45,340 nt of DNA, from IMG/VR virus record IMGVR_UViG_2537561977_000033; one strand, given 5' to 3'. Both the position numbers and the translations under genes were made by a program. Source of the DNA: a virus. Its lineage: Duplodnaviria > Heunggongvirae > Uroviricota > Caudoviricetes. This document shows positions 1-45,340 of this stretch, piece after piece; position 1 is the stretch's first letter; every line of letters starts with the position of its first letter. The notes below the pieces were generated by a model, which was not told where the DNA came from, did no database searches, and saw only the letters and a list, made by a program, of their open reading frames with translations.

Positions 1-1284
1 TTACAGACTTCTGGAAGGTTGCGCAGCTCTTACAACACGCGGTTGATCTTCCGCAGCGTCTTCCAGCGCACTTAAATCACGGTCTTTCACCTCTGGCATT
101 TTCAGCGCAGAGATTAAACCAATTACTGAATATGCCATGATCATAATGGCGATCGGATACCAGGATTCCGTCATGGTGCAGAAAATACCCGCCAGGATAG
201 GACCAAAACCGGAAGCGATAAGACCACCAATTTCTTTAGAAATAGCCATCCGGGTAAAGCGGTTTTTACAGCCGAACATTTCTGCCATGGTAATGTTTTC
301 CAGAGCAAATAATCCCAGCACCGCACAGTTATGAATCACAATCAGTGCAACCATAATGGTGCTCGGGGCATAGCTTTTATCTACAATGATAGAAAGCATT
401 GGCCATGCCAGCACAATCGCGGAGGTATTCATAATAATATACGGGATCCGGCGACCAATTTTATCGGATAACCAACCAAGGAACGGAATGGTCATAAAGC
501 CGAGAATCGAACTAATCATCAATGCATCTGTTGGAATTGCTTTGTTAAACAATAACGTCTGCACTAAATAGCCTGCAAGGAAAGTCTGAATTAACCCGGA
601 GTTACCCGCCTGACCAAAACGCAGCCCTGTTGCCAGCCAGAAGGATTTGCTCTGGAACATGCTACCAGCAGGTGCAGGTTTTGCTGTGGGTTGGTTGCTG
701 TCATTAACCTTCTCAAAGACCGGGCTTTCTTTCAGATTCATACGTAACCAGATAGCAAAGACCATCACGACAACGCTCGCCAGGAACGGTATACGCCATC
801 CCCACGCCAGCAGTTCCTCTTTACTGAGAATGAAGAACATAAAGGCCCAGATTGCCGTTGCGCTCAAGGTTCCGCAGTTAGTTCCCATAGCTACAAATGA
901 GGAGATAATTCCGCGCTTACCTTTTGGTGCATATTCCGCCAGCATCGTACCGGCACCGGAAATTTCCGCACCTGCACCCAACCCCTGAATAATACGCAGC
1001 GTCACCAGCAAGATGGGGGCAAAAACACCAATCTGTGCATAGGTCGGTAACACACCAATTAAGGTGGTACAGATCCCCATCATGGTGATGGTAATAAAGA
1101 GCACTTTTTTACGCCCTATTCTGTCGCCCATTTTGCCGAAAATAAATGCTCCGACAATACGCGCCACATAACCCTCACCGTAGGTTCCCATTGCCAAAAT
1201 TAACGCCATTGCCGTTGATGATTCAGGAAAAAATATTTCATGAAACACTAACGCTGCGCCGAGCGAATATAACTGGAAATCCAT
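1..1284 (-). CDS. ydfJ: MFS-family transporter, 427 aa, probably N-terminally shortened
   Basis: Long minus-strand ORF with multiple hydrophobic segments and MFS loop motif GKMGDRIGRKK only ~50 aa from the start; matches my memory of E. coli YdfJ. Stop codon at 1-3. Confidence 0.75.
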   Translation of the reverse strand: MDFQLYSLGAALVFHEIFFPESSTAMALILAMGTYGEGYVARIVGAFIFGKMGDRIGRKKVLFITITMMGICTTLIGVLPTYAQIGVFAPILLVTLRIIQGLGAGAEISGAGTMLAEYAPKGKRGIISSFVAMGTNCGTLSATAIWAFMFFILSKEELLAWGWRIPFLASVVVMVFAIWLRMNLKESPVFEKVNDSNQPTAKPAPAGSMFQSKSFWLATGLRFGQAGNSGLIQTFLAGYLVQTLLFNKAIPTDALMISSILGFMTIPFLGWLSDKIGRRIPYIIMNTSAIVLAWPMLSIIVDKSYAPSTIMVALIVIHNCAVLGLFALENITMAEMFGCKNRFTRMAISKEIGGLIASGFGPILAGIFCTMTESWYPIAIMIMAYSVIGLISALKMPEVKDRDLSALEDAAEDQPRVVRAAQPSRSL

Positions 1285-2069: not shown

Positions 2070-2303
2070 ATGAAATCAAAAGACACCCTAAAGTGGTTCC
2101 CTGCGCAGCTTCCTGAAGTAAGAATTATCCTAGGGGATGCTGTAGTGGAAGTAGCAAAACAGGGAAGACCTATCAATACCAGAACATTGCTTGATTACAT
2201 TGAAGGAAACATAAAGAAAAAATCATGGCTGGATAACAAAGAATTATTACAAACAGCGATATCAGTTCTTAAAGACAACCAAAATTTAAATGGTAAAATG
2301 TAA
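2070..2303 (+). CDS. ydfK: YdfK/YnaE-family small prophage protein, 77 aa from the internal Met
   Basis: ORF 2037-2303; AAGGAA Shine-Dalgarno precedes the ATG at 2070 (MKSKDTLKWFPAQLPEV...); recalled similarity to K-12 YdfK/YnaE. Confidence 0.55.
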   Translation: MKSKDTLKWFPAQLPEVRIILGDAVVEVAKQGRPINTRTLLDYIEGNIKKKSWLDNKELLQTAISVLKDNQNLNGKM

Positions 2304-2591
2304 TATAATAAACTTACTTTTTTATCATTTTTCCACTTTAACAACATTTTGCTCCACTTTTCCACGACCAAACAACTTGAAATCTGGTTAAAATAACACG
2401 CAACACTATTCTTCTTCCTTGAGTCCGCCCGGAACTCGAAAAACAAACCGAGTTAAAGCCATTTTTCACAAAATCGATTTTGGGTTTCACCAAAATTACG
2501 GGGTTGCATACGCATTCGTTTATTTTCGAACGTGTAGGTAATGCTGCCAACTTACTGATTTAGTGTATGATGGTGATTTTAAGGTGCTTGC

Positions 2592-2867
2592 GTGGCTTCC
2601 ATTTCCATCAGATGTCCTTCCTGCTCCGCTACTGAAGGCGTGGTGCGTAACGGCAAAAGCACTGCCGGACATCAGCGCTATCTCTGCTCTCATTGCCGTA
2701 AAACATGGCAACTACAGTTCACTTACACCGCCTCTCAGCCCGGTACGCACCAGAAAATCATTGATATGGCCATGAATGGCGTCGGATGTCGCGCCAGTGC
2801 ACGCATTATGGGCGTTGGCCTCAACACGGTTTTACGTCACTTAAAAAACTCAGGCCGCAGTCGGTAA
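2592..2867 (+). CDS. insA: IS1 InsA, 91 aa
   Basis: [43 protein letters not shown]... matches IS1 InsA from memory. Confidence 0.85.
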
Positions 2868-3289
2868 CCTCGCGCATACAACCGGGCAGTGATGTGATTG
2901 TCTGCGCTGAAATGGACGAACAGTGGGGCTACGTCGGTGCTAAATCACGTCAGCGCTGGCTGTTTTACGCGTATGACAGGATACGGAGGACGGTTGTGGC
3001 GCACGTCTTCGGTGAACGCACTCTGGCCACACTGGAGCGTCTTCTGAGCCTGCTGTCGGCCTTTGAGGTCGTGGTATGGATGACGGATGGCTGGCCGCTG
3101 TATGAATCACGCCTGAAGGGAAAGCTGCACGTTATCAGCAAGCGTTACACTCAGCGCATTGAGCGACATAATCTGAATCTGAGACAACATCTGGCAAGGC
3201 TGGGACGGAAGTCACTGTCGTTCTCAAAATCGGTGGAGCTGCATGACAAGGTCATCGGGCATTATCTGAACATAAAACACTATCAGTAA
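2786..3289 (+). CDS. insB: IS1 InsB reading frame, 167 aa (normally made as InsAB' by frameshifting)
   Basis: [16 protein letters not shown]...[13 protein letters not shown]... matches IS1 InsB; overlaps insA in another frame. Confidence 0.85.
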
Positions 3290-3395
3290 GTTGGAGTCAT
3301 TACCAACGTGTACATACAAATATGCACAAAAATAATCATAATTATTTTCTGAGATGCATTATGATATGAACACCAATTTCGTATAGAGTCTCACT

Positions 3396-3986
3396 ATGTC
3401 TCGAATTTTTGCTTACTGTCGGATATCAACGCTGGATCAGACCACCGAAAATCAACGCCGGGAAATCGAAAGTGCAGGTTTTAAAATCAAACCTCAGCAA
3501 ATAATCGAAGAACACATTAGCGGCTCAGCAGCAACCAGTGAGCGTCCTGGTTTTAACCGGTTGCTTGCTCGCCTGAAATGTGGTGATCAATTGATTGTGA
3601 CAAAACTGGATCGCCTTGGTTGTAATGCAATGGATATCAGGAAAACAGTGGAACAACTGACCGAAACAGGTATCAGAGTGCATTGCTTAGCATTGGGGGG
3701 CATTGACCTGACCAGTCCAACAGGAAAAATGATGATGCAAGTAATTTCAGCAGTCGCTGAATTTGAACGAGACCTTTTACTTGAACGCACTCATTCCGGG
3801 ATAGTAAGAGCCCGCGGCGCAGGGAAACGTTTTGGTCGACCACCTGTGTTAAATGAAGAACAGAAACAGGCGGTATTCGAACGAATTAAGTCAGGTGTAA
3901 GTATAAGTGCCATTGCCCGGGAATTCAAAACCTCGCGGCAAACCATTTTAAGAGCCAAAGCAAAACTTCAGACACCTGACATATAA
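3396..3986 (+). CDS. pin: Pin/Gin/Hin-family serine DNA invertase, 196 aa
   Basis: [20 protein letters not shown]... with the catalytic Ser in the YCRIS motif and a C-terminal HTH; matches Pin of E. coli cryptic prophages. Confidence 0.85.
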
Positions 3987-4082
3987 AAATAATCTCGGTG
4001 TGAGATGCTTTACGTCTTCCAAGCCCCCTTCCTTGCCGTAAATGGAAAGATACATCTAATTATAGAATTTATATGTTTTACC

Positions 4083-4658
4083 CTACGGCAGTGCTGGCCA
4101 TTCAATATCCTGTGCAGTTGACGTATCAACACGGTTCAGCAATACCCGATACTTTTTCCATGCTTCCAGCAACGAGATTTCTTCCTCCGTTGCAATTTCC
4201 AGATCTGCAGCATCCTGAAGCGGCGCAATATGCTCACTGGCTACCTGCATCAGGTTGTTTTTTGTTTCTTCCGCCTCCCGGATCCGGAACAGTTTTTCTG
4301 CTTCCGTATCCTTCACCCAGGCTGTGCCGTTCCACTTCTGAAACTCCCCTTCCGGCGATAACCAGGTAACATTTTCCGGTAACGGACCGAGTTCAGAAAT
4401 AAATAACGCGTCGCCGGAAGCCACGTCATAAACCGTTTTACCCCGATGATCTTCAACGAGATGCCACGATGACTCATCACTGTTGAAAACAGCCACGAAG
4501 CCAGCCGGAATATCTGGCGGTGCAATATCGGTACTGTTTGCTGGCAGACCTGTATGAGGCGGAATATATGCATCACCTTCACCAATAAATTCATTAGTTC
4601 CGGCCAGCAGATTATAAATTTTTATGGTCCGTGGTTGTTCACTCATTCTGAATGCCAT
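4083..4658 (-). CDS. tfa: tail fiber assembly protein, 191 aa
   Basis: Immediately downstream of the fiber gene with start/stop overlap at 4656-4660; sequence matches remembered TfaQ/lambda Tfa. Confidence 0.8.
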
Positions 4659-6313
4659 TATGCAAGCCTCACAATATAGTTAAATGCGATGTTTTTGACG
4701 GTGTTTTCCGCGTTACCAGCAGCGTTAACGGTGATGGTGTGTCCATGTGAACCAATCGCAACGGAGTGCGTATGAGCACCAATACCGACAGTATGTGCAT
4801 GTGCGCCTGCGCTTGCAGCAGTACCGGACAGCGAGTGGGTATGAGCACCATCTGATGATGTCTTCCCTGCATTACGAGTCTGGCCACTACCGCTTGTTGT
4901 GCTCATAATCCCCGCGCTTAGATTTGAAATCGCGGTATAACCATTAGGGAAAATGCTCGTGTTCGTGCCACCAAATGCACCGGAACTCTTGTGTTGGTGC
5001 GCACCGGCACTATTTGCGGTCCCGCTAATACTATGGGTATGCGCCCCGGTGTTATTCGTGGATTTGGTTCCGTAATCAAACGACGATGTGGTTTTCGTCC
5101 CCAAATCCGTACTGGATGCGCTGGCGCTGTGGGTGTGCGATTTAATGCCGTCCTGTTCCTGAGTTAATACGGCCCGACCACTGGCGGGCTTGCCCTTAAT
5201 CGTCCAGCCACGCATATCAGGGATCACGCCTGACGGATAAGCAACTGCAAGTTTCGGGTATGCAGATTTGTCAAAAGTCTGCCCCTGCATCAGGGCATAA
5301 CCAGACGGAACGGTATCTGATGGCCACGGGATTGGTGCACCGACTGGATAAAACTCTGCAGGAGGATGAGCCGAGGTGTAAAGCTGCGCCCACGGCGACC
5401 AGTTTGCGTCGGTCGTATCCCGTCGTGAACGAATAAATGCCGGAGCATGAGCACCGCTTGTACCACTCCAGCCGATGAGTAACTCACCTTCGCCAACGGC
5501 TGTCATCCCTTTCAGGTGAATGATATTTCCATACGCTGTTGGATATCCGTTGTTATACACCTCGTATAACTCAAGACCTGCTGCCCCCTGCGTATTGTCT
5601 GTCAGCGCGGTTACCCGACCTTTTGAAGCCAGATTAACTGATGATACTGCTGTTCCACCTGACGGTAACGCCCCGATCTCTGATGCCGTTGGCTTATTTC
5701 TGGAGTTATAGTCCCTTCGCCAGCCAGGTGAATAATCTGTTCCGTGATTAATATAGGTAAACTGGGCGTTAGTTGTTCCACCACCAGTGGAGGTGGTCGG
5801 TGTGGTAATGCGGATCGTCATCGCTGACTTTATCCCCATTACTTCAATGACAGCTCCGGCGAGATGAATATTACCGCAGTCAGTATCAGTAATGATTTTA
5901 TTATTGCCATAAGACCAGGACCCCTTGCACATCCAGTAGGGATGGTTAAATGCTCCCTGAGAATCCAGCCACTCGATAAACTGTGCAGTCGTCCAGTTTC
6001 CTGTTGTTGTGCTTACTGACCCACCGAAGGCACGGCAGGCACCAATATTTTTCGTAAAGGTATCTTTGCCAGGGATATCCGCACCGTTCTGATCTTTCTG
6101 CAGACGTTTCTCAGCATTGTCATTGGCTGCTTTTACTGCCTTTGGCGTTGCCGCCAGCGTTTCAGACGTGCTGTTGGTCGCGCTGCTTAACTGGATTATC
6201 CCTTTGTGCTGTCGTTGCATCCTGTGCGGTGTATTTCCCGTTAGCCAGGTCATACGCGGCCTTAACGGCTTTTGGCGTTGCCGCCTGTGACTCGGAAGTG
6301 CTGTTGGTCGCAC
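4658..6313 (-). CDS. stf: side tail fiber, C-terminal distal part; frame differs from the upstream stf part, real translation start unclear
   Basis: C-terminus ...[40 protein letters not shown] matches lambda Stf; carries the conserved box [26 protein letters not shown] near its N-terminus; first ~35 codons look like out-of-frame read-through. Confidence 0.7.
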
Positions 6314-6335
6314 TACTGAGCTGGACTATCCCCTT
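6141..6335. repeat. two direct copies (~64 bp each, ~130 bp apart) of the conserved tail-fiber recombination box
   Basis: 6141-6204 and 6271-6335 align with about 15 mismatches and one 1-nt length difference; both encode ...[11 protein letters not shown]...ATPKAVKAA in different frames. Confidence 0.8.
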
Positions 6336-7736
6336 TTTCGTCGTGCTCGCATCCTCAAGCGCCACGGCGGATGCAATATCCTCTGCCCGTTTTGCCGCTG
6401 TCTCGGCGCGCGTTGCCGCGGTTTCTGCCGTACTTTTGCTCTGTGCTGCCGCTGTCGCACTGCCAGCAGCCTCTGTCGCCTTCGTGGATGCTGTCGTGGC
6501 GCTGCCCTTCGCTGCTGACGCCTGTCTGGTCGCCTCATCTTTTGAAGCTGACGCCGATGATGCCGATGAAGCCGCCGAACTGGCGGACGATGCGGCAGCC
6601 GTTTTTGAGGATTCTGCGCTGGTTTCCGACGCTTTCGCGTTCGTCTCGGATGTCTTCGCTGCGGAAGCAGACCTCGCTGCTGCACTGGCCTGTTCAGTGG
6701 CTTCGCCAGCCTTCGTTGTGGCTGTTGAAGCAGACGAGGCGGCACTTTCTGCCGACTTTCCGGCAGCGGTGGCACTGGCTGAGGCCTGCCCGGCACTTGT
6801 TGACGCGGTACTGGCAGATGATGCAGCCGCTGTTTTTGAGCCTGCCGCAGCTGAGGCACTCTGTCCCGCTGCCGTTTCAGAAGACCTGGCGTTCGTCTCG
6901 GACGTCTTTGCCGCCTTCGCGGAATTTCCTGCCGCCGTTGCCGAGGAAGCGGCACTACTGGCGCTTGATGATGCGTTCGTTTCTGATGATTTCGCTGCCT
7001 CTTTTGAGGCCGCCGCATCCCGGGCTGAGGTGGCAGCTTCTGACGCCTTTGTGGTCGCTGCGGATGCAGAAGTGGCTGCAGATTTTTGTGACGCTGCCGC
7101 ATTCGTTTCTGACGTTTTCGCCGCACCGGCACTGGTAGCTGCCGCGCTTTTTGAGGACTCTGCAGCGGCAGCACTTTTTGATGCTTCAGTAGCCTTTGTT
7201 GATGCCGTTCCTGCGCTGGAAGACGCTGACTGAGCCGACGTCGCGGCCTGCCCGGCTGATGTGCTGGCTGCACGTGCTGAGCCTGCAGCATCAGTCGCAT
7301 GGGTTGCCGCCTCACGGGCTGATGTGCCGGCATCGCCGGCTGACTTCTTCGCGGCTGCCGTGTTCTGTGCCACCGCGGACGCGTTACGCGCCACCTCTTC
7401 CACCATCAGCTCAAAACGGCGCAGTGCCTCCGGACGGGCATCATCCTCCGTCATGGCACCGAGAAAATCATTCAGCGTACCGGGTCGGGAATCTTCATAC
7501 ACGGTGATGGTCCCGGCATGTGACGGCGGGAATCCTTCCACCAACAGAATAACGCTGTACTGACCGTACTCAACGTCCATACTGTAACGCCCGGCTTCAT
7601 CCGGATTTTCTGAGGCCAGCGTGTTCACCACCACCGTGGTGCTGTTACGTTTTGCTTTCAGCTGGATTGTGCAGTTCTGTACCGGTTTTCCTGTGCCGTC
7701 TTTCAGTACACCTGAAATCTTTACTGCCATATTCAC
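6162..7736 (-). CDS. stf: side tail fiber, N-terminal proximal part, 524 aa, Ala/Ser-rich repeats
   Basis: N-terminus [37 protein letters not shown]... matches lambda Stf; ends shortly after the conserved box, inside the second copy of the repeat. Confidence 0.75.
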
Positions 7737-15159: not shown

Positions 15160-16453
15160 CTGAGGAATCCCCAGAAAACAAGACAGGCATAGTGAGATGT
15201 GATCTAATTGATTGTGCTAACAATTTCAAGGAGATCACCACTATGCCTGCACGTTCATTATGCCAAAATTTCCTTAACAACATACTGGCCCCTTTGCATC
15301 TTTACCGTCAAAAATCACTGATTGACGCAACTAATGCTGTAATAAATGGCGCTTCCCTCACACTTACCAGTATCGGGCGTCATTTAACCGGTACGGCATC
15401 AGTTAAAAACAAAATAAAGCGGGTGGATCGACTGTTGGGGAATCGACATTTGCAAAATGAGGTTTCCACCATTTTTCAGCGAATTACCCAAAAGATTACG
15501 CGGGGAATGTCTCGTGTTGTGATACTCATTGACTGGAGTGCTTATCATGCCTCTCGTTTTCAGCTTTTGCGGGCAAGCCTGGCATGTGACGGGCGTTCTT
15601 TACCGTTGATGAGTTGTGTCGTTCCATCATCACAGACAGCGAATGCAGATGTACATGAGCGTTTTCTGGAATCGCTTGCTGAGTGCTTTTCCCCCGGGAC
15701 TGATGTCATTGTTATTACAGATGCCGGTTTTCAGGGGCGATGGTTCCAACAGCTCCGCTCCCGTGGCTGGACCTATATTTGCCGGGTACTGGGCAATCAT
15801 TATTACAATGTTGGTAATGGCTGGGAAAAGGTGTCGGACTCAGGCACAAAAGCATCAACGACAGCAATTTATTTAGGTGAAGGCCTGCTGGGTCGAGATA
15901 AAAATGCACAACATGAAGGGCATTTTTATCTTTATAAAAGTAAGCCTAAAGGTCGTAGATTTAAACGCTCGAAGGAAAGAGCAACCAGACCATCGGTGAC
16001 GGCTAAAGCTCGTACTGCCGGGAAATCACCATGGTTTATTTTCACAAACAGTACTGAGTTCTCGCCAAAACAGGTAATGAAATTATACAGCCGTAGAATG
16101 CAAATTGAGCAAAATTTCAGGGATGAAAAAAATCCTCGCTGGGGATTTGGACTACGGTTTGGTGCCAGTCATTCATCCGGGCGGGTCACGGTATTGAGTC
16201 TGATCGCAACATTAGCCAGTATCATTATGTGGTTAAGCGGTTTCAGCCTGGAAAACAAAGGGATACATCATAAATATCAGGCAAATACAGTGAAGCACAG
16301 GCGAGTCATCTCGTTATTAAAACTGGCGGAGAATGTGATTCGACATTCTCCACTCATACTAAACACACTGTCACTTGACGCAGGGCTGAAAGTTCTACAG
16401 CAACGGTATACCAATATGATAATGGTTTACTAAATTTTCTGGGGATCCCTCAG
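15160..16453 (+). mobile_element. IS4-family (IS10-like) insertion sequence, ~1.29 kb, no flanking direct repeat
   Basis: Terminal inverted repeats CTGAGGAATCCCCAGAAAA (15160-15178) and TTTTCTGGGGATCCCTCAG (16435-16453) resemble IS10 ends (CTGA.GATCCCC); flanking 9-mers differ (AGTCAGCCC vs GGCAAATCC). Confidence 0.8.
15192..16433 (+). CDS. IS4-family DDE transposase, 413 aa, IS10 transposase-like
   Basis: Motifs KRVDRLLGNRHLQNE, YKSKPKGRRFKRS, YSRRMQIEQNFRDEK and HKYQANTVKHRRV parallel remembered IS10 transposase; partial identity only. Confidence 0.85.
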   Translation: MRCDLIDCANNFKEITTMPARSLCQNFLNNILAPLHLYRQKSLIDATNAVINGASLTLTSIGRHLTGTASVKNKIKRVDRLLGNRHLQNEVSTIFQRITQKITRGMSRVVILIDWSAYHASRFQLLRASLACDGRSLPLMSCVVPSSQTANADVHERFLESLAECFSPGTDVIVITDAGFQGRWFQQLRSRGWTYICRVLGNHYYNVGNGWEKVSDSGTKASTTAIYLGEGLLGRDKNAQHEGHFYLYKSKPKGRRFKRSKERATRPSVTAKARTAGKSPWFIFTNSTEFSPKQVMKLYSRRMQIEQNFRDEKNPRWGFGLRFGASHSSGRVTVLSLIATLASIIMWLSGFSLENKGIHHKYQANTVKHRRVISLLKLAENVIRHSPLILNTLSLDAGLKVLQQRYTNMIMVY

Positions 16454-26340: not shown

Positions 26341-26656
26341 ACTACCACTGCTGGTTCAGAGTTAAAAAAACTATGATTTTTTCATGATGTTACCGTAGTA
26401 TGTGAGTATCCATCGAATAGACACCAAGCAAAAAAGCTCCCGAAGGAGCCTTCATTTTCACTTTTTTAAATCCAACGACAGACGGCTGGCATTTAAGTAT
26501 TGTGAAATATTATCAAATGTAATCATCATTGATTTACAAAAGATACATTTTGCCCCGAAAGGATTCATGTCAGAAACATCAAAAGATGATGTTCTATACT
26601 GGGAACCATGACAACACGGGCATCTAAAGTGAATATGGTTTGTAATATTGTCTACC

Positions 26657-26869
26657 TCAAAGCGCCACTACATGAACAGCGGCAGGACCTTTAGGTCCGT
26701 TCTCAATACCAAATTCAACTTCCTGATTCTCAGTTAATGTTTTGAAATCGTTGCTCTGAATTGCTGAGAAATGGACAAACACATCTTTGCTGCCATCTTT
26801 CGGCGTGATGAAACCAAAACCTTTTTCAGGGTTAAACCATTTCACTAAACCAGTCATTTTGTTAGACAT
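26657..26869 (-). CDS. cspI: cold-shock protein (CspA family), 70 aa
   Basis: [38 protein letters not shown]... with RNP1/RNP2 motifs; matches my memory of CspI. Confidence 0.8.
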
Positions 26870-27230
26870 AATTATTACCTTTTGAAGAAATTAGCCCTTG
26901 GGCAGAATGGTCCGAAAAAAATATCAGAGAGAAAAACCAACAAGGAAATCTCAAGAGGTACAAATAATAAAATTATAACAATGACTGCTTCAGATAAATT
27001 TGTAACAAACCAGAACACCATTAACGCATGATTAACCACCCATAGCAAGGATTACTTTTGTAAAGAAAAACACAGCAATGAAAGAATAGCTTTATTTATT
27101 AATAAAACGTGTCATTCTGATTAAGACCTTTTATCTTACCCTTAAGATTTCAGGAATTTTGGCTCATGGAAGAGTCCTTTTTATTCAAATTTTACATTCC
27201 GCGATGTAAATGTTCCGATTTAATATTACC

Positions 27231-29175: not shown

Positions 29176-29537
29176 TTGATTTTATTAGTAACAAGTATTT
29201 TTATATTTTAATAATATATTTAAAGCAGATAATAAAAAACCCGCCTGAGCGGGTTTGAGATTGTGGTGCTTTTTGTGGGAGTCATCCACTTACGCACTTT
29301 GTTTTGCCATGCCAGCAGTTAGCTTCTGCTGTAAAACTATTCATGCAGCAAACCTGCACTTCACCACAATGGTTAGCATACTTTTCCTGATTAAGATTTT
29401 GCCAAATATGCTAGCCATTGTTTCATGTATTGGACCTCCTTACTTTTTATTAAAGAGATCCAATATTCACTACTCTGTCCGTATCTCTACTCAGGCATCA
29501 GCCTTCTTCGTTATCGTATACAGACGAGCGATGAATT

Positions 29538-29753
29538 TTAATCAGTAATGATGACATTTGCTGCTGCAGGACCTTTAGCACCACTCTCTATAGAGAAGGT
29601 AACCTTTTGACCTTCAAATAAGGTTCGATAATTATCATTCTGAATCGCAGAAAAATGCACAAACACATCTTTACTACCATCAACAGGAGAAATAAAGCCG
29701 AAACCTTTATCAGCGTTAAACCATTTTACTAAACCAGTCATTTTATTTGACAT
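29538..29753 (-). CDS. cspB: cold-shock protein (CspA family), 71 aa
   Basis: [51 protein letters not shown]... matches my memory of CspB. Confidence 0.8.
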
Positions 29754-30052
29754 TCTACATTCCTTAACTTGAGCCTTTCGGCATAAATGGTTTGCATAAC
29801 AGAAACGACTTCGTACTTAATTGGAGAGACTCAAAGAAGGAATAAGTGAATAACACCTGAAATGAGAACTGCTTTAGTAAACTACTTCGTATATCGTCTG
29901 TTCTTCAAACCGACGCAATCATTAACGCATAGTTGAACATATGAAGCAATGTTTATTTTAGACATCCAGCCGTCTTCAACCCCATCAAAAACTATAGCTT
30001 TCTTCAGGAACGTGTGTATAGTGCGCCAAGTTATCAGTATTAAGGAATTTTT

Positions 30053-35129: not shown

Positions 35130-36790
35130 GTCACTTTTGTGGGGACAGTCCACAAAACTGCCAACTTCCGCTTCTTGCTCTTAGCGGACATTAGCATAGG
35201 CTATTTACCATAACGCCTCATTACGCGCACCGCCCAGACTGACTCAGCGCGTTTCTGGCATATCCCCGGTAAAACAAGTAACAACCCCCCCGAAAATGAA
35301 CACCAGAAACGCGACTTAAGAATCTACCCTATGAATGGATATGCACTCAACCGAATCGATCTTGGTTTCAATCTATTTTATCGGGATCAGGCTTCTTTTT
35401 AGGTAACTTCGGGGGCTTAACTTGCTGATGACTTTGCGTTCGGCGCGTAAGCCAGGGATGGTCAGCTTTAGATTTAACATAGTATTTTGAGCGTAAATCA
35501 ATACGGGCATTATCCACTCGTTCATGGACACTCTTTTCATCATCCAGTGGTATAGGCTCCGGGCCATCAACATACTTTTCCCAGCCCAGCGCTTTCCCGT
35601 CATACAGAACGTTAATTTCACCGTCAAAGTTCTCACATACAGTAACAACCGAATGCCTAAGTCGATATCCCCGGCCCTCACTGCGTACCTGAAACGCACT
35701 GCTTTTGTACTGGAAAGTGAGATTTTTAGACAGAACGCGCTTCGCCTGTAGGCTGAAGATATAACCCAGTTCCTCTTCAGAATGGTGCACATCAAGATGA
35801 GCATTATCAGTAGTACGAGGCGACGTAGCGAACCGGTTGTTATAGGCTTCAATAAAGGTCGGCAACCATGCATTTGCTGTTTCAATATCACTGATATTCT
35901 GAAGCCGCATTTCTTTGACCAGCCTGTCCTGTAGTGTCTGATTGGCGCGCTCTACCCGCCCTTTTGCCTGCGGGCTGTTGGCATGGATTGGCTCGATGCC
36001 CAGTGTCTTTATCGCACGAGTGAACTGGGTCAGCTCACCTTCCCGCTCTGGGTTATTTACCCTGAATATACTGTGTCTATCAGAGTAGAGAGCGAGCGGT
36101 ACGCCATGATCATTAAGGTAACCCCGGAGGGTTTCCATGTAAGCCCGGGTTGTTTCAGCAGGCACAAAACGCAACGCCATCAACGCACTGGTGGCATCAT
36201 CAATGAAAACGATCAGTGTACATCTGGGGCCTCGATTTTCAAACCAGTCATGCGGTGAGCCATCAATCTGGATCAGTTCACCGTAAGATGGTCGTCGCAT
36301 GCGGCGTTGATATATACGGGCAATTTTACGACGGCGTTCACGCCATAACCCCTCTTCTATCATCCACTTTCTGAGAGTTTCAACGGATAAAGATAAACCG
36401 TGTATCTCGCGCAATTTTTCGCACGCAAACGTAGGTCCAAAATCAGCGTAACGGCCTTTGAGGAGTGAAATTACTGTTGCTCTGAATTCAGTAGAAAAGG
36501 AATTATTAGGACGCTTTCCACGTCGGTGGGAAACCAGACCAGAAGGCCCTTCATTTCTATACCGTTGCACCAGACGTTTAACCTGCCGAATAGAAATGCC
36601 AATGCGTGCCGCAGCTTGTTCCTGAGTAATATGTCGATTAATTGACTCCTGAATAATCTGAAGTCGGTGGAGTTCCTTATGACTCATCGTAACAGTCTCT
36701 TTGATCATGAAAAATCCCCCAGAGAATTGTCTGGGGACATTTTAGAATGGTTCAAAGGGGACATTACAGCTTGGTGTTAACAATAGCCTG
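35130..36790 (-). mobile_element. insertion sequence carrying an integrase-fold DDE transposase (IS481/ISNCY-like); boundaries approximate
   Basis: Transposase gene 35368-36708; palindromic GGGGACA-containing sequences on both sides (35136-35160; 36711-36770); exact ends and target duplication not resolved. Confidence 0.4.
35368..36708 (-). CDS. DDE transposase with N-terminal HTH and rve integrase core, 446 aa
   Basis: MIKETVTMSHKELHRLQIIQESINRHITQEQAAARIGISIRQVKRL... (HTH), then candidate catalytic D (IQIDGSPHDWF), D (LYSDRHSIF) and E (AKGRVERANQTLQDRL). Confidence 0.8.
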   Translation of the reverse strand: MIKETVTMSHKELHRLQIIQESINRHITQEQAAARIGISIRQVKRLVQRYRNEGPSGLVSHRRGKRPNNSFSTEFRATVISLLKGRYADFGPTFACEKLREIHGLSLSVETLRKWMIEEGLWRERRRKIARIYQRRMRRPSYGELIQIDGSPHDWFENRGPRCTLIVFIDDATSALMALRFVPAETTRAYMETLRGYLNDHGVPLALYSDRHSIFRVNNPEREGELTQFTRAIKTLGIEPIHANSPQAKGRVERANQTLQDRLVKEMRLQNISDIETANAWLPTFIEAYNNRFATSPRTTDNAHLDVHHSEEELGYIFSLQAKRVLSKNLTFQYKSSAFQVRSEGRGYRLRHSVVTVCENFDGEINVLYDGKALGWEKYVDGPEPIPLDDEKSVHERVDNARIDLRSKYYVKSKADHPWLTRRTQSHQQVKPPKLPKKKPDPDKID

Positions 36791-39697: not shown

Positions 39698-40273
39698 ATG
39701 GATTTCGACACAATCATGGAAAAGGCTTACGAAGAATACTTCGAAGGCCTTGCCGAAGGCGAAGAAGCTCTCAGCTTCAGTGAGTTTAAACAGGCACTCA
39801 GAATAAGAATGTGCTCTCACAATGACGCGGAGCACAAATATGAGAAGCAAAATCAGACCGCAGGAAATTTTGTTCTGGAACCCGGAGAAACGCTTTTCAA
39901 AATTCCCGTTACGTGCCCCATTTGCGGTTTTACATCAGAAGAACTTGACGACTCCTGTAACAATCAGGAAACAACCAAGTATGTCGAAGATGATACCGAG
40001 TGCGCACGAAGAACGATTATATCCACGAGTCCAAACTCCAGGACCAATAAATCTCACTATGAGAGGGTGATTAATCCACTCCCCCAAACCAATAAAAAAG
40101 ATGCCGGAGGACAAAAAACCCAATGGAACAACGGGATATCTGTCAAAAAAAGACGTTCCATTAAAGACAAACAACGCAGCGCCAACAACTGTAAGCGCTT
40201 TATACCAGTAATCAATTTTCATGTTCTTAAGCGGATTTATTGGTGGTTGCGACATTGCTTAATGAATCCTTAA
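39698..40273 (+). CDS. 191-aa ORF covering the region K-12 splits into ydfB and ydfC; contains a CPICGF zinc-finger-like motif
   Basis: Starts MDFDTIMEKAYEEYFEGLAEGEEALSFSEFKQAL... and continues uninterrupted to 40273. Confidence 0.4.
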   Translation: MDFDTIMEKAYEEYFEGLAEGEEALSFSEFKQALRIRMCSHNDAEHKYEKQNQTAGNFVLEPGETLFKIPVTCPICGFTSEELDDSCNNQETTKYVEDDTECARRTIISTSPNSRTNKSHYERVINPLPQTNKKDAGGQKTQWNNGISVKKRRSIKDKQRSANNCKRFIPVINFHVLKRIYWWLRHCLMNP

Positions 40274-40532: not shown

Positions 40533-40585
40533 TTTCTGGTGACGTTTGGCGGTATCAGTTTTACTCCGTGACTGCTCTGCCGCCC
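40533..40585 (+). ncRNA. dicF: DicF small regulatory RNA (ftsZ-targeting), ~53 nt, followed by a T-run
   Basis: TTTCTGGTGACGTTTGGCGGTATCAGTTTTACTCCGTGACTGCTCTGCCGCCC matches the DicF sequence as I remember it; between the ydfB/C region and dicB. Confidence 0.8.
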
Positions 40586-44044: not shown

Positions 44045-45340
44045 ATGAGAGAAGTTGAAATGAAATATCCGACAGGCGTGGAAAACCATGGAGGGAAATT
44101 ACGTATCTGGTTTGTTTATAAAGGCGTAAGAGTCAGGGAAAATCTGGGGGTTCCTGACACAGCAAAAAACAGGCGCGTTGCAGGTGAACTACGCTCCTCT
44201 GTTTGTTACGCAATAAAAACTGGTGTTTTCGACTATGCAAAACAGTTTCCCTCCTCACGCAATCTGGAAAAATTTGGTGAGGCCCGACAAGATTTAACCA
44301 TAAAAGAACTGGCTGAAAAATTTCTGGCACTGAAAGAAACTGAAGTCGCCAAAACATCACTCAACACATACCGTGCCGTCATCAAAAATATCCTGAGCAT
44401 AATCGGTGAAAAAAATCTTGCCTCATCGATTAATAAAGAAAAATTACTGGAGGTTCGTAAAGAGCTACTGACTGGATACCAGATCCCCAAAAGTAACTAT
44501 ATTGTTACACAACCAGGGAGATCGGCTGTAACTGTAAATAATTACATGACAAATCTTAACGCCGTGTTCCAGTTTGGTGTTGATAACGGTTACCTGGCAG
44601 ATAATCCGTTTAAGGGGATCTCGCCATTAAAGGAATCAAGAACCATTCCGGATCCTCTTTCGCGGGAGGAATTTATCCGTCTTATCGATGCGTGCAGAAA
44701 TCAGCAAGCAAAAAATTTATGGTGTGTTTCTGTTTATACTGGCGTTCGCCCTGGTGAGCTGTGTGCACTTGGATGGGAGGACATAGATCTGAAAAATGGA
44801 ACAATGATGATCAGGAGAAATTTAGCAAAAGACCGTTTCACGGTACCAAAAACACAGGCGGGAACCAATCGGGTCATTCATCTTATTAAGCCAGCAATCG
44901 ACGCTCTCCGGAGTCAGATGACATTAACGAGACTGAGCAAAGAGCATATCATTGATGTTCACCTCAGAGAGTATGGCAGAACAGAAAAACAAAAATGCAC
45001 CTTTGTTTTTCAACCTGAAGTGTCAGCGAGAGTAAAAAATTATGGTGACCATTTTACCGTTGACTCAATAAGGCAGATGTGGGACGCAGCGATAAAACGT
45101 GCCGGACTCCGCCATCGAAAATCATATCAGTCGAGACATACTTATGCCTGCTGGTCGCTGACAGCTGGTGCTAACCCGGCATTTATAGCAAACCAGATGG
45201 GCCATGCAGATGCGCAAATGGTATTTCAGGTATACGGAAAATGGATGTCTGAAAACAATAATGCACAGGTAGCTTTGTTAAATACACAGTTAAGCGAGTT
45301 TGCCCCAACCATGCCCCATAACGAAGCAATGAAAAATTAA
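44045..45340 (+). CDS. int: tyrosine integrase (phage integrase family), up to 431 aa
   Basis: C-terminal catalytic region with R (GVRPGELCALGWEDID), HxxR (SRHTYACW) and Tyr (VFQVYGKWM); stop at 45338-45340, the last bases of the window. Confidence 0.85.
   Translation: MREVEMKYPTGVENHGGKLRIWFVYKGVRVRENLGVPDTAKNRRVAGELRSSVCYAIKTGVFDYAKQFPSSRNLEKFGEARQDLTIKELAEKFLALKETEVAKTSLNTYRAVIKNILSIIGEKNLASSINKEKLLEVRKELLTGYQIPKSNYIVTQPGRSAVTVNNYMTNLNAVFQFGVDNGYLADNPFKGISPLKESRTIPDPLSREEFIRLIDACRNQQAKNLWCVSVYTGVRPGELCALGWEDIDLKNGTMMIRRNLAKDRFTVPKTQAGTNRVIHLIKPAIDALRSQMTLTRLSKEHIIDVHLREYGRTEKQKCTFVFQPEVSARVKNYGDHFTVDSIRQMWDAAIKRAGLRHRKSYQSRHTYACWSLTAGANPAFIANQMGHADAQMVFQVYGKWMSENNNAQVALLNTQLSEFAPTMPHNEAMKN

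Follow-up and report, generated by a model that had tools for sequence, protein, structure and literature searches.

An intact IS1F-type insertion sequence between ydfK and pinQ in a Qin-type prophage

Canonical IS1 (IS1A/IS1E/IS1R, IS1B) is a 768-bp element with 23-bp inverted repeats, in which insA is followed by insB' and a -1 frameshift at an A6C motif yields the InsAB' transposase. The target duplications that it leaves are usually described as 9 bp long. The role of the A6C motif in frameshifting is also set out in a study that gives the duplication as 8 or 9 bp and reports that IS1F of Escherichia coli K-12, its type IV, is essentially or nearly unable to transpose (PMC12428005).

Invertases of the Din family act on invertible segments such as e14 P/Pin, Mu G/Gin and P1 C/Cin. 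PinQ, the invertase of the Qin prophage, works in trans: it inverts the e14 P segment and thereby blocks adsorption of phage T2, and the e14 crossover sequence for this PinQ-mediated inversion is CCTTCTCCCAAACCAA (PMC12529663). In K-12, pinQ lies at the left end of Qin (ydfJ'-ynfT-ydfK-pinQ-tfaQ-stfQ), which is a 20-kb remnant.

Here we describe an IS1 insertion within a stretch of 45,340 bp (hereafter the window) that is a near full-length lambdoid prophage of ~44 kb at the Qin site. Its best match among complete E. coli genomes shows 97% identity over 93% of the query. When the IS1 is left out, the left end is 99.4% identical to that of K-12 Qin over 3.9 kb and has the same gene order, whereas K-12 carries no IS1 at this site. 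The coordinates of the features discussed below are collected in Table 1.

Table 1. Positions of the IS1 insertion, its neighbours and other annotated features in the 45,340-bp window
Feature	Position	Strand	Remarks
ydfJ'	1-1284		left end of prophage
ydfK, cold shock protein YdfK	2070-2303	+	77 aa, intact; named from annotation of collinear loci
Left target-site duplication copy AACGTGTA	2529-2536		abuts IS1 left end
IS1, IS1F-type isoform	2537-3304	+	768 bp; transposase genes directed toward pinQ
IRL, left terminal inverted repeat GGTAATGCTGCCAACTTACTGAT	2537-2559	+	from pattern searches; starts GGTAATG
insA	2592-2867	+	GTG start, 91 aa; Zn-ribbon and HTH
insAB' transposase coding region	2592-3289	+	predicted 232 aa after -1 shift; insB' open to stop
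A6C (A AAA AAC) programmed -1 frameshift motif	2843-2849	+	joins insA to insB'; within TTAAAAAAC, 2841-2849
IRR, right terminal inverted repeat	3282-3304	-	20/23 match to reverse complement of IRL (3 mismatches)
Right target-site duplication copy AACGTGTA	3305-3312		last 4 bases begin predicted pinQ -35 hexamer
Predicted sigma-70 pinQ promoter, TGTACA-16-AATAAT	3309-3336	+	consensus scan; prediction
pinQ, serine DNA invertase	3396-3986	+	196 aa, intact; PF00239 and PF02796
IS009 sRNA, inside tfaQ	4117-4315	-	Rfam gathering-level
stf second ORF	4658-6313	-	fibre repeat and collar
stf N-terminal ORF	6162-7736	-	PF08400
IS4-family transposase gene	15192-16433	+	413 aa; NF033591, 360 bits; inside tail gene block
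cspA-type thermoregulator leader (prophage csp gene)	26630-27014	-	Rfam gathering-level
cspA-type thermoregulator leader (prophage csp gene)	29522-29914	-	Rfam gathering-level
ISNCY-family transposase gene	35368-36708	-	445 aa; NF033594, 466 bits; early or regulatory region
DicF	40534-40585	+	Rfam gathering-level
Integrase gene	44045-45340		far end of prophage

The element and its isoform

An earlier note on this DNA, made from the sequence alone, had proposed a complete 768-bp IS1 with ends at positions 2537 and 3304, and pattern searches place both ends at exactly these bases. Reading of positions 2200-4300 gives the order of the left junction as TTTTCG, AACGTGTA and then IRL, and that of the right junction as the IS1 end ATCAGTAAGTTGGAGTCATTACC, AACGTGTA and then CATAC; the sequence of the occupied-site junction is CGTTTATTTTCGAACGTGTAGGTAATGCTGCC. 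The insA product matched PF03811 and PF12759 in Pfam (69.8 and 95.1 bits, respectively), while the conceptual InsAB' fusion scored 245 bits against the NCBIfam model NF033558, 'IS1 family transposase' (cutoff 100), and matched the Pfam domains Zn_ribbon_InsA, HTH_Tnp_IS1 and DDE_Tnp_IS1, with 248 bits for PF03400. The element thus has the length (~768 bp) and the imperfect inverted repeats of ~23 bp beginning with GGT that characterize the IS1 family, together with an insA ORF, an A6C motif behind which the -1 insB' frame is open (frameshifting here is predicted from the sequence), a DDE domain, a direct duplication in the range of 8-9 bp, an unoccupied counterpart of the site elsewhere, and identity to a named isoform. 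It is a complete, intact copy of a known element and an ordinary, strain-specific insertion.

Comparison with other copies identifies the isoform. The window IS1 is identical to IS1F of K-12 MG1655 at 763 of 768 nucleotides (99.3%), as opposed to only 698-701 of 768 (~91%) for the IS1A and IS1B copies, and we therefore assign it to the IS1F type ('type IV'). While it shares the length, inverted repeats, insA, A6C frameshift motif and insB' with canonical IS1, it diverges from it by ~9% at the nucleotide level, and its IRL starts with GGTAATG instead of GGTGATG; position 4 of IRL is typically A in the IS1F type. K-12 IS1F has the same GGTAATG termini at both ends, the same length and the same gene layout. 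However, it differs in having a stop codon that ends the InsB' frame prematurely (the insB7 gene carries a pseudogene annotation), an H34P substitution in the CxxC...HC zinc motif of InsA, a T52K substitution and an S-to-L change, and in lacking a target duplication, whereas in the window copy all frames are open and the duplication is perfect. The stop and the three substitutions, all arising from the 5 of 768 positions at which the two copies differ and all absent from the window copy, provide a straightforward reason why K-12 IS1F is reported as inactive.

Copies identical to the window IS1 at 768 of 768 positions (100%) are found in many E. coli chromosomes and in plasmids of Shigella boydii, S. 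dysenteriae, S. flexneri and S. sonnei, some of them annotated as IS1 family transposase, and the isoform has therefore spread recently. Judged from these comparisons, the IS1F-type isoform itself is intact and widespread outside K-12, with K-12 IS1F as its dead relative, and intact copies evidently transpose. The open frames, the perfect duplication and the identical copies elsewhere suggest that the copy in the window is likewise probably active.

Target duplication, empty site and origin of the insertion

The 8-bp target duplication claimed by the earlier note was upheld: AACGTGTA is identical on both flanks, and its only two occurrences in the whole 45,340-bp window are those lying directly against the IS1 ends. 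The probability of an 8/8 match at a fixed position by chance is ~1.5e-5. The repeat stops at 8 bp and cannot be extended to 9 bp, because the neighbouring bases differ on both sides (G2528 versus the IS-terminal C3304, and the IS-initial G2537 versus C3313). To see how common this length is, GTDB representative genomes were scanned for the IS1F-type left end, the loci coming mainly from Shigella flexneri SFBU1023, E. coli ECMA0423 and Mixta sp., and repeats were measured around every complete copy. Among the copies with a perfect repeat, the repeat was 9 bp in 14 of 24 and 8 bp in 10 of 24; a repeat of 8 bp is therefore ordinary for this type. All three IS1A/B insertions examined in the ydfK-pinQ region had 9-bp duplications. 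The length of the stagger may accordingly vary with the isoform (A versus G at IRL position 4), a contrast that draws on only three IS1A/B cases.

To find the site without the element, we joined 400 nt of left flank ending in a single AACGTGTA to 400 nt of right flank. Among 5426 complete E. coli genomes, 2749 contain a place that covers at least 80% of this empty site, a count that may include loci with short insertions, since pieces up to 900 bp apart were merged into one place. The best 30 matches aligned in a single piece over 800 of 800 positions at 99.9% and are annotated ydfK and pinQ on either side. At base level, the unoccupied site of E. coli strain K_EC180 reads ...TTCGAACGTGTACATAC..., with a single copy of AACGTGTA, within the uninterrupted ...TTCGAACGTGTACATACAAAT..., and its sole SNP is found 50 bp further left. 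The comparison with Qin-type prophages lacking IS1 that the earlier note had called for gave a matching picture: in K-12 Qin the spacer from the ydfK stop to the pinQ start is 316 bp long, exactly the length in the window after removal of IS1 and one repeat, and the two differ by that one SNP. Since the spacer is restored in this way and is contiguous, at ~99.9% identity, in thousands of complete E. coli genomes, the event is a simple transposition in which nothing was deleted, inverted or displaced. IS1 prefers AT-rich targets, and the ydfK-pinQ spacer is 66.5% AT compared with 50.4% for the window.

The occupied site is rare. The exact insertion was found in one draft assembly only (GCA_000188815.2, contig ADUP01000059.1). 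An exact-sequence lookup of the window's J protein led to this contig alone; all 21,940 bases compared agree with the window, and the IS1 is present, so that the draft assembly is evidently the source of the window. A single-piece match to the occupied junction occurred in none of the 5426 complete E. coli genomes, where the best full-coverage matches were made up of three pieces with IS1 at other positions, and the junction was likewise absent from the GTDB species-representative genomes and from JGI metagenome contigs. Some IS1 lies within or beside the same 1.6-kb region in 26 complete E. coli genomes. In the three of these with a matching span, the element is an IS1A/B and sits inside pinQ (AW1.7), 85 bp after ydfK (B379) or inside ydfK (GN05505); given the other isoform and the different positions we rejected them as the same event. 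They are independent insertions, and the AT-rich ydfK-pinQ region has been struck repeatedly.

The insertion is known from draft assembly sequence, and it could in principle have come about otherwise, namely by homologous recombination between IS1 copies, so that the element would lie at one boundary of a more extensive rearrangement or deletion, or as an artefact of the draft assembly. The contig is indeed draft whole-genome shotgun sequence, the same prophage carries two further IS elements, one of them beside truncated tail genes, and in Shigella and E. coli such recombination has left many copies of IS1 without a duplication; in our survey 59 of 83 complete IS1F-type copies had no repeat longer than 2 bp, the duplication presumably having been lost by recombination between IS copies. 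However, the window copy has a perfect 8-bp direct repeat exactly at both ends, its two flanks join up and align collinearly with unoccupied sites in their thousands without a base lost or gained, and assemblers do not create target duplications. The contiguous empty sites and the K-12 spacer comparison effectively refute recombination or artefact already, and the chance that either accounts for the insertion is, in our judgement, negligible.

We are instead highly confident that the locus records a recent simple insertion of an intact IS1F-type IS1, private to one strain or lineage, into the AT-rich 316-bp spacer at the left end of a Qin-type prophage. Transposition as the origin is what we infer from the anatomy, duplication, empty site, isoform and rarity observed here, and recency from the perfect repeat, the 100% identity to other copies and the private distribution; both agree with the earlier note, which had read the locus as a simple recent transposition. 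In the established mechanism, the InsAB' transposase, made by the -1 frameshift at the A6C motif, binds the 23-bp terminal repeats and joins the element to target DNA that has been cut with a stagger; here, repair of an 8-base stagger left the two copies of AACGTGTA. No sequence was lost, and ydfK, pinQ and the predicted pinQ core promoter are all intact.

The predicted pinQ promoter

The element lies between the promoter-proximal region of the invertase gene and the ydfK side, as previously suggested. The gene that the earlier note called pin is pinQ of the Qin-type prophage, and the estimated distance of 90 bp to it proved to be 91 bp (3305-3395, counting the 8-bp repeat and ending before the ATG at 3396). 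On the other side, 233 bp separate the stop codon of ydfK from IS1. PinQ of the window differs from K-12 PinQ by one residue (R3 versus Q3), and this exact protein is recorded in thousands of assemblies.

The TGTACA and AATAAT hexamers are listed as a predicted constitutive RpoD promoter of pinQ and pinR in a Genomic SELEX study, which also flags the ydfK-pinQ spacer as associated with H-NS (Shimada et al., PMC3946193). The pinQ promoter is a prediction backed by in vitro binding of RNA polymerase, and whether its core is intact is conditional on that prediction. Between the right end of IS1 (3304) and the predicted -35 hexamer (3309-3314) downstream of it lie 4 bp. The predicted core promoter is nonetheless preserved, since the TGTA within the duplication restores the -35 hexamer next to pinQ: both hexamers, the spacer between them and a leader of ~52 nt remain attached to pinQ, and the right end of IS1 replaces only the DNA upstream of about -40, including the T-rich TTTATTTT.

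This proximity raises the question of a regulatory mutation, in which PinQ would go up or down and alter inversion of the e14 P segment. The proposed routes are the removal of activating or silencing DNA upstream, a block to read-through from ydfK, and read-through or bending supplied by the IS1 end. Several observations would fit, namely the 4-bp distance to the -35 hexamer, the H-NS flag on the spacer, the shift of the T-rich TTTATTTT, which lay upstream of the -35, by 776 bp, the orientation of insAB' toward pinQ, the capacity of IS1 insertions to give rise to promoters or modify them (Prentki et al. 1986, as cited in PMC12428005), and the role of PinQ in phage defence, pinQ and pinR being induced ~14-fold by T2 (PMC12529663). 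Against this stand the two promoter hexamers and the entire 5' leader, all unchanged. Reading of positions 3291-3320 revealed no strong outward promoter at IRR, and the consensus scan lists none there. IS1 is classically polar, which makes read-through unlikely. The insertion moreover occurs in a single assembly and so shows no sign of having been selected. A regulatory mutation acting by any of these routes is thus an improbable reading, and we think it very unlikely that the IS1 rewires pinQ expression, for instance by relieving silencing or uncoupling phage-induced control, and so amounts to a regulatory variant, created by an IS, of a phage-defence switch. If it did, PinQ-driven inversion of the e14 P segment, which blocks T2 adsorption, would change. 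The preferred reading remains an insertion whose effect on pinQ expression, from the arrangement of the sequence, is probably small or absent, and a functionally meaningful change is unlikely.

Scans for other signals gave little in this region. No terminator was found between positions 1900 and 4200, and an Rfam scan of the ydfK-pinQ spacer returned no known RNA element that IS1 could have split. A hybrid promoter-like match runs on the minus strand from 2550 to 2522, with TTGGCA in IRL, a 17-nt spacing and GAAAAT in the flank (9/12 consensus); it points from the left end of IS1 toward ydfK and, while a consensus match only, resembles described IS1 junction promoters.

An orphan invertase in a decaying prophage

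PinQ resembles the Din-family recombinases in being a small serine invertase with a Resolvase and an HTH_7 domain (PF00239, 125 bits; PF02796, 44 bits), and its gene adjoins the tail-fibre genes tfa and stf. In contrast to the Din-family segments, there is neither a pair of inverted crossover sites nor an alternative tail-fibre cassette beside pinQ, and the locus thus does not form an invertible segment of this kind. The earlier note had raised the possibility that the insertion displaced DNA usually found beside an invertase gene, and this did not hold up: without IS1 the 316-bp spacer is restored, the same order is seen in Qin and Rac, and the window has no e14-type site. The best match to CCTTCTCCCAAACCAA in the whole window is a single one with 3 mismatches at 40077, 36 kb away and within chance expectation, and the generic crossover core AAACCNNGGTTT has only chance-level matches in the window, all far from pinQ. 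Of the 10 places shown in the comparison of gene order (Qin, Rac and other sites), 9 have ydfK or ynaE preceding pin by 316 bp, with tfa and stf on the far side of pin, and ynaM or ynfT is called in 8 of those 9; the tenth has an IS3-like element instead of ydfK. Because this order and the 316-bp spacing recur in unoccupied loci and no e14-type site is present in the window, that no invertible segment adjoins the gene is characteristic of Qin/Rac-type prophages and was not brought about by IS1. PinQ is an orphan invertase in a Qin-type prophage.

A perfect 14-bp palindrome, CAAAATCGATTTTG, is present in the ydfK-pinQ spacer at 2468-2481, ~60 bp to the left of the insertion point, and adjoins the only SNP relative to K-12 (2486). 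It was considered as a hix half-site on the basis of a loose resemblance by eye, did not match the e14 site and was dropped.

The prophage is decaying, and IS1 is among several IS elements that have struck it. The IS4-family gene is flanked by an 81-aa fragment of Minor_tail_Z and by a 242-aa gene that has only the C-terminal domain of the tape-measure protein; genes that should lie between Z and the end of the tape-measure gene appear to be missing, and an IS-associated deletion has therefore probably left the prophage tail-defective. The side tail fibre gene is broken up into a pair of overlapping ORFs, each in its own frame (4658-7736, minus strand), that bear a common motif near the overlap. 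Since other genomes have a single stf CDS of ~1116-1131 aa, the window stf is probably a frameshifted or recombined pseudogene; an exact protein lookup found no record of the product of its N-terminal ORF. None of the Rfam matches (IS009, the csp leaders and DicF) is touched by IS1.

Taken as a whole, the insertion is a known element showing known behaviour, and its value lies mainly in correct annotation: nothing is missing beside pinQ, and with the IS1F-type isoform, duplications of 8 bp are almost as frequent as those of 9 bp. Given the anti-phage role of PinQ, natural pinQ alleles with an IS against the promoter are ready material for testing how pinQ is regulated.
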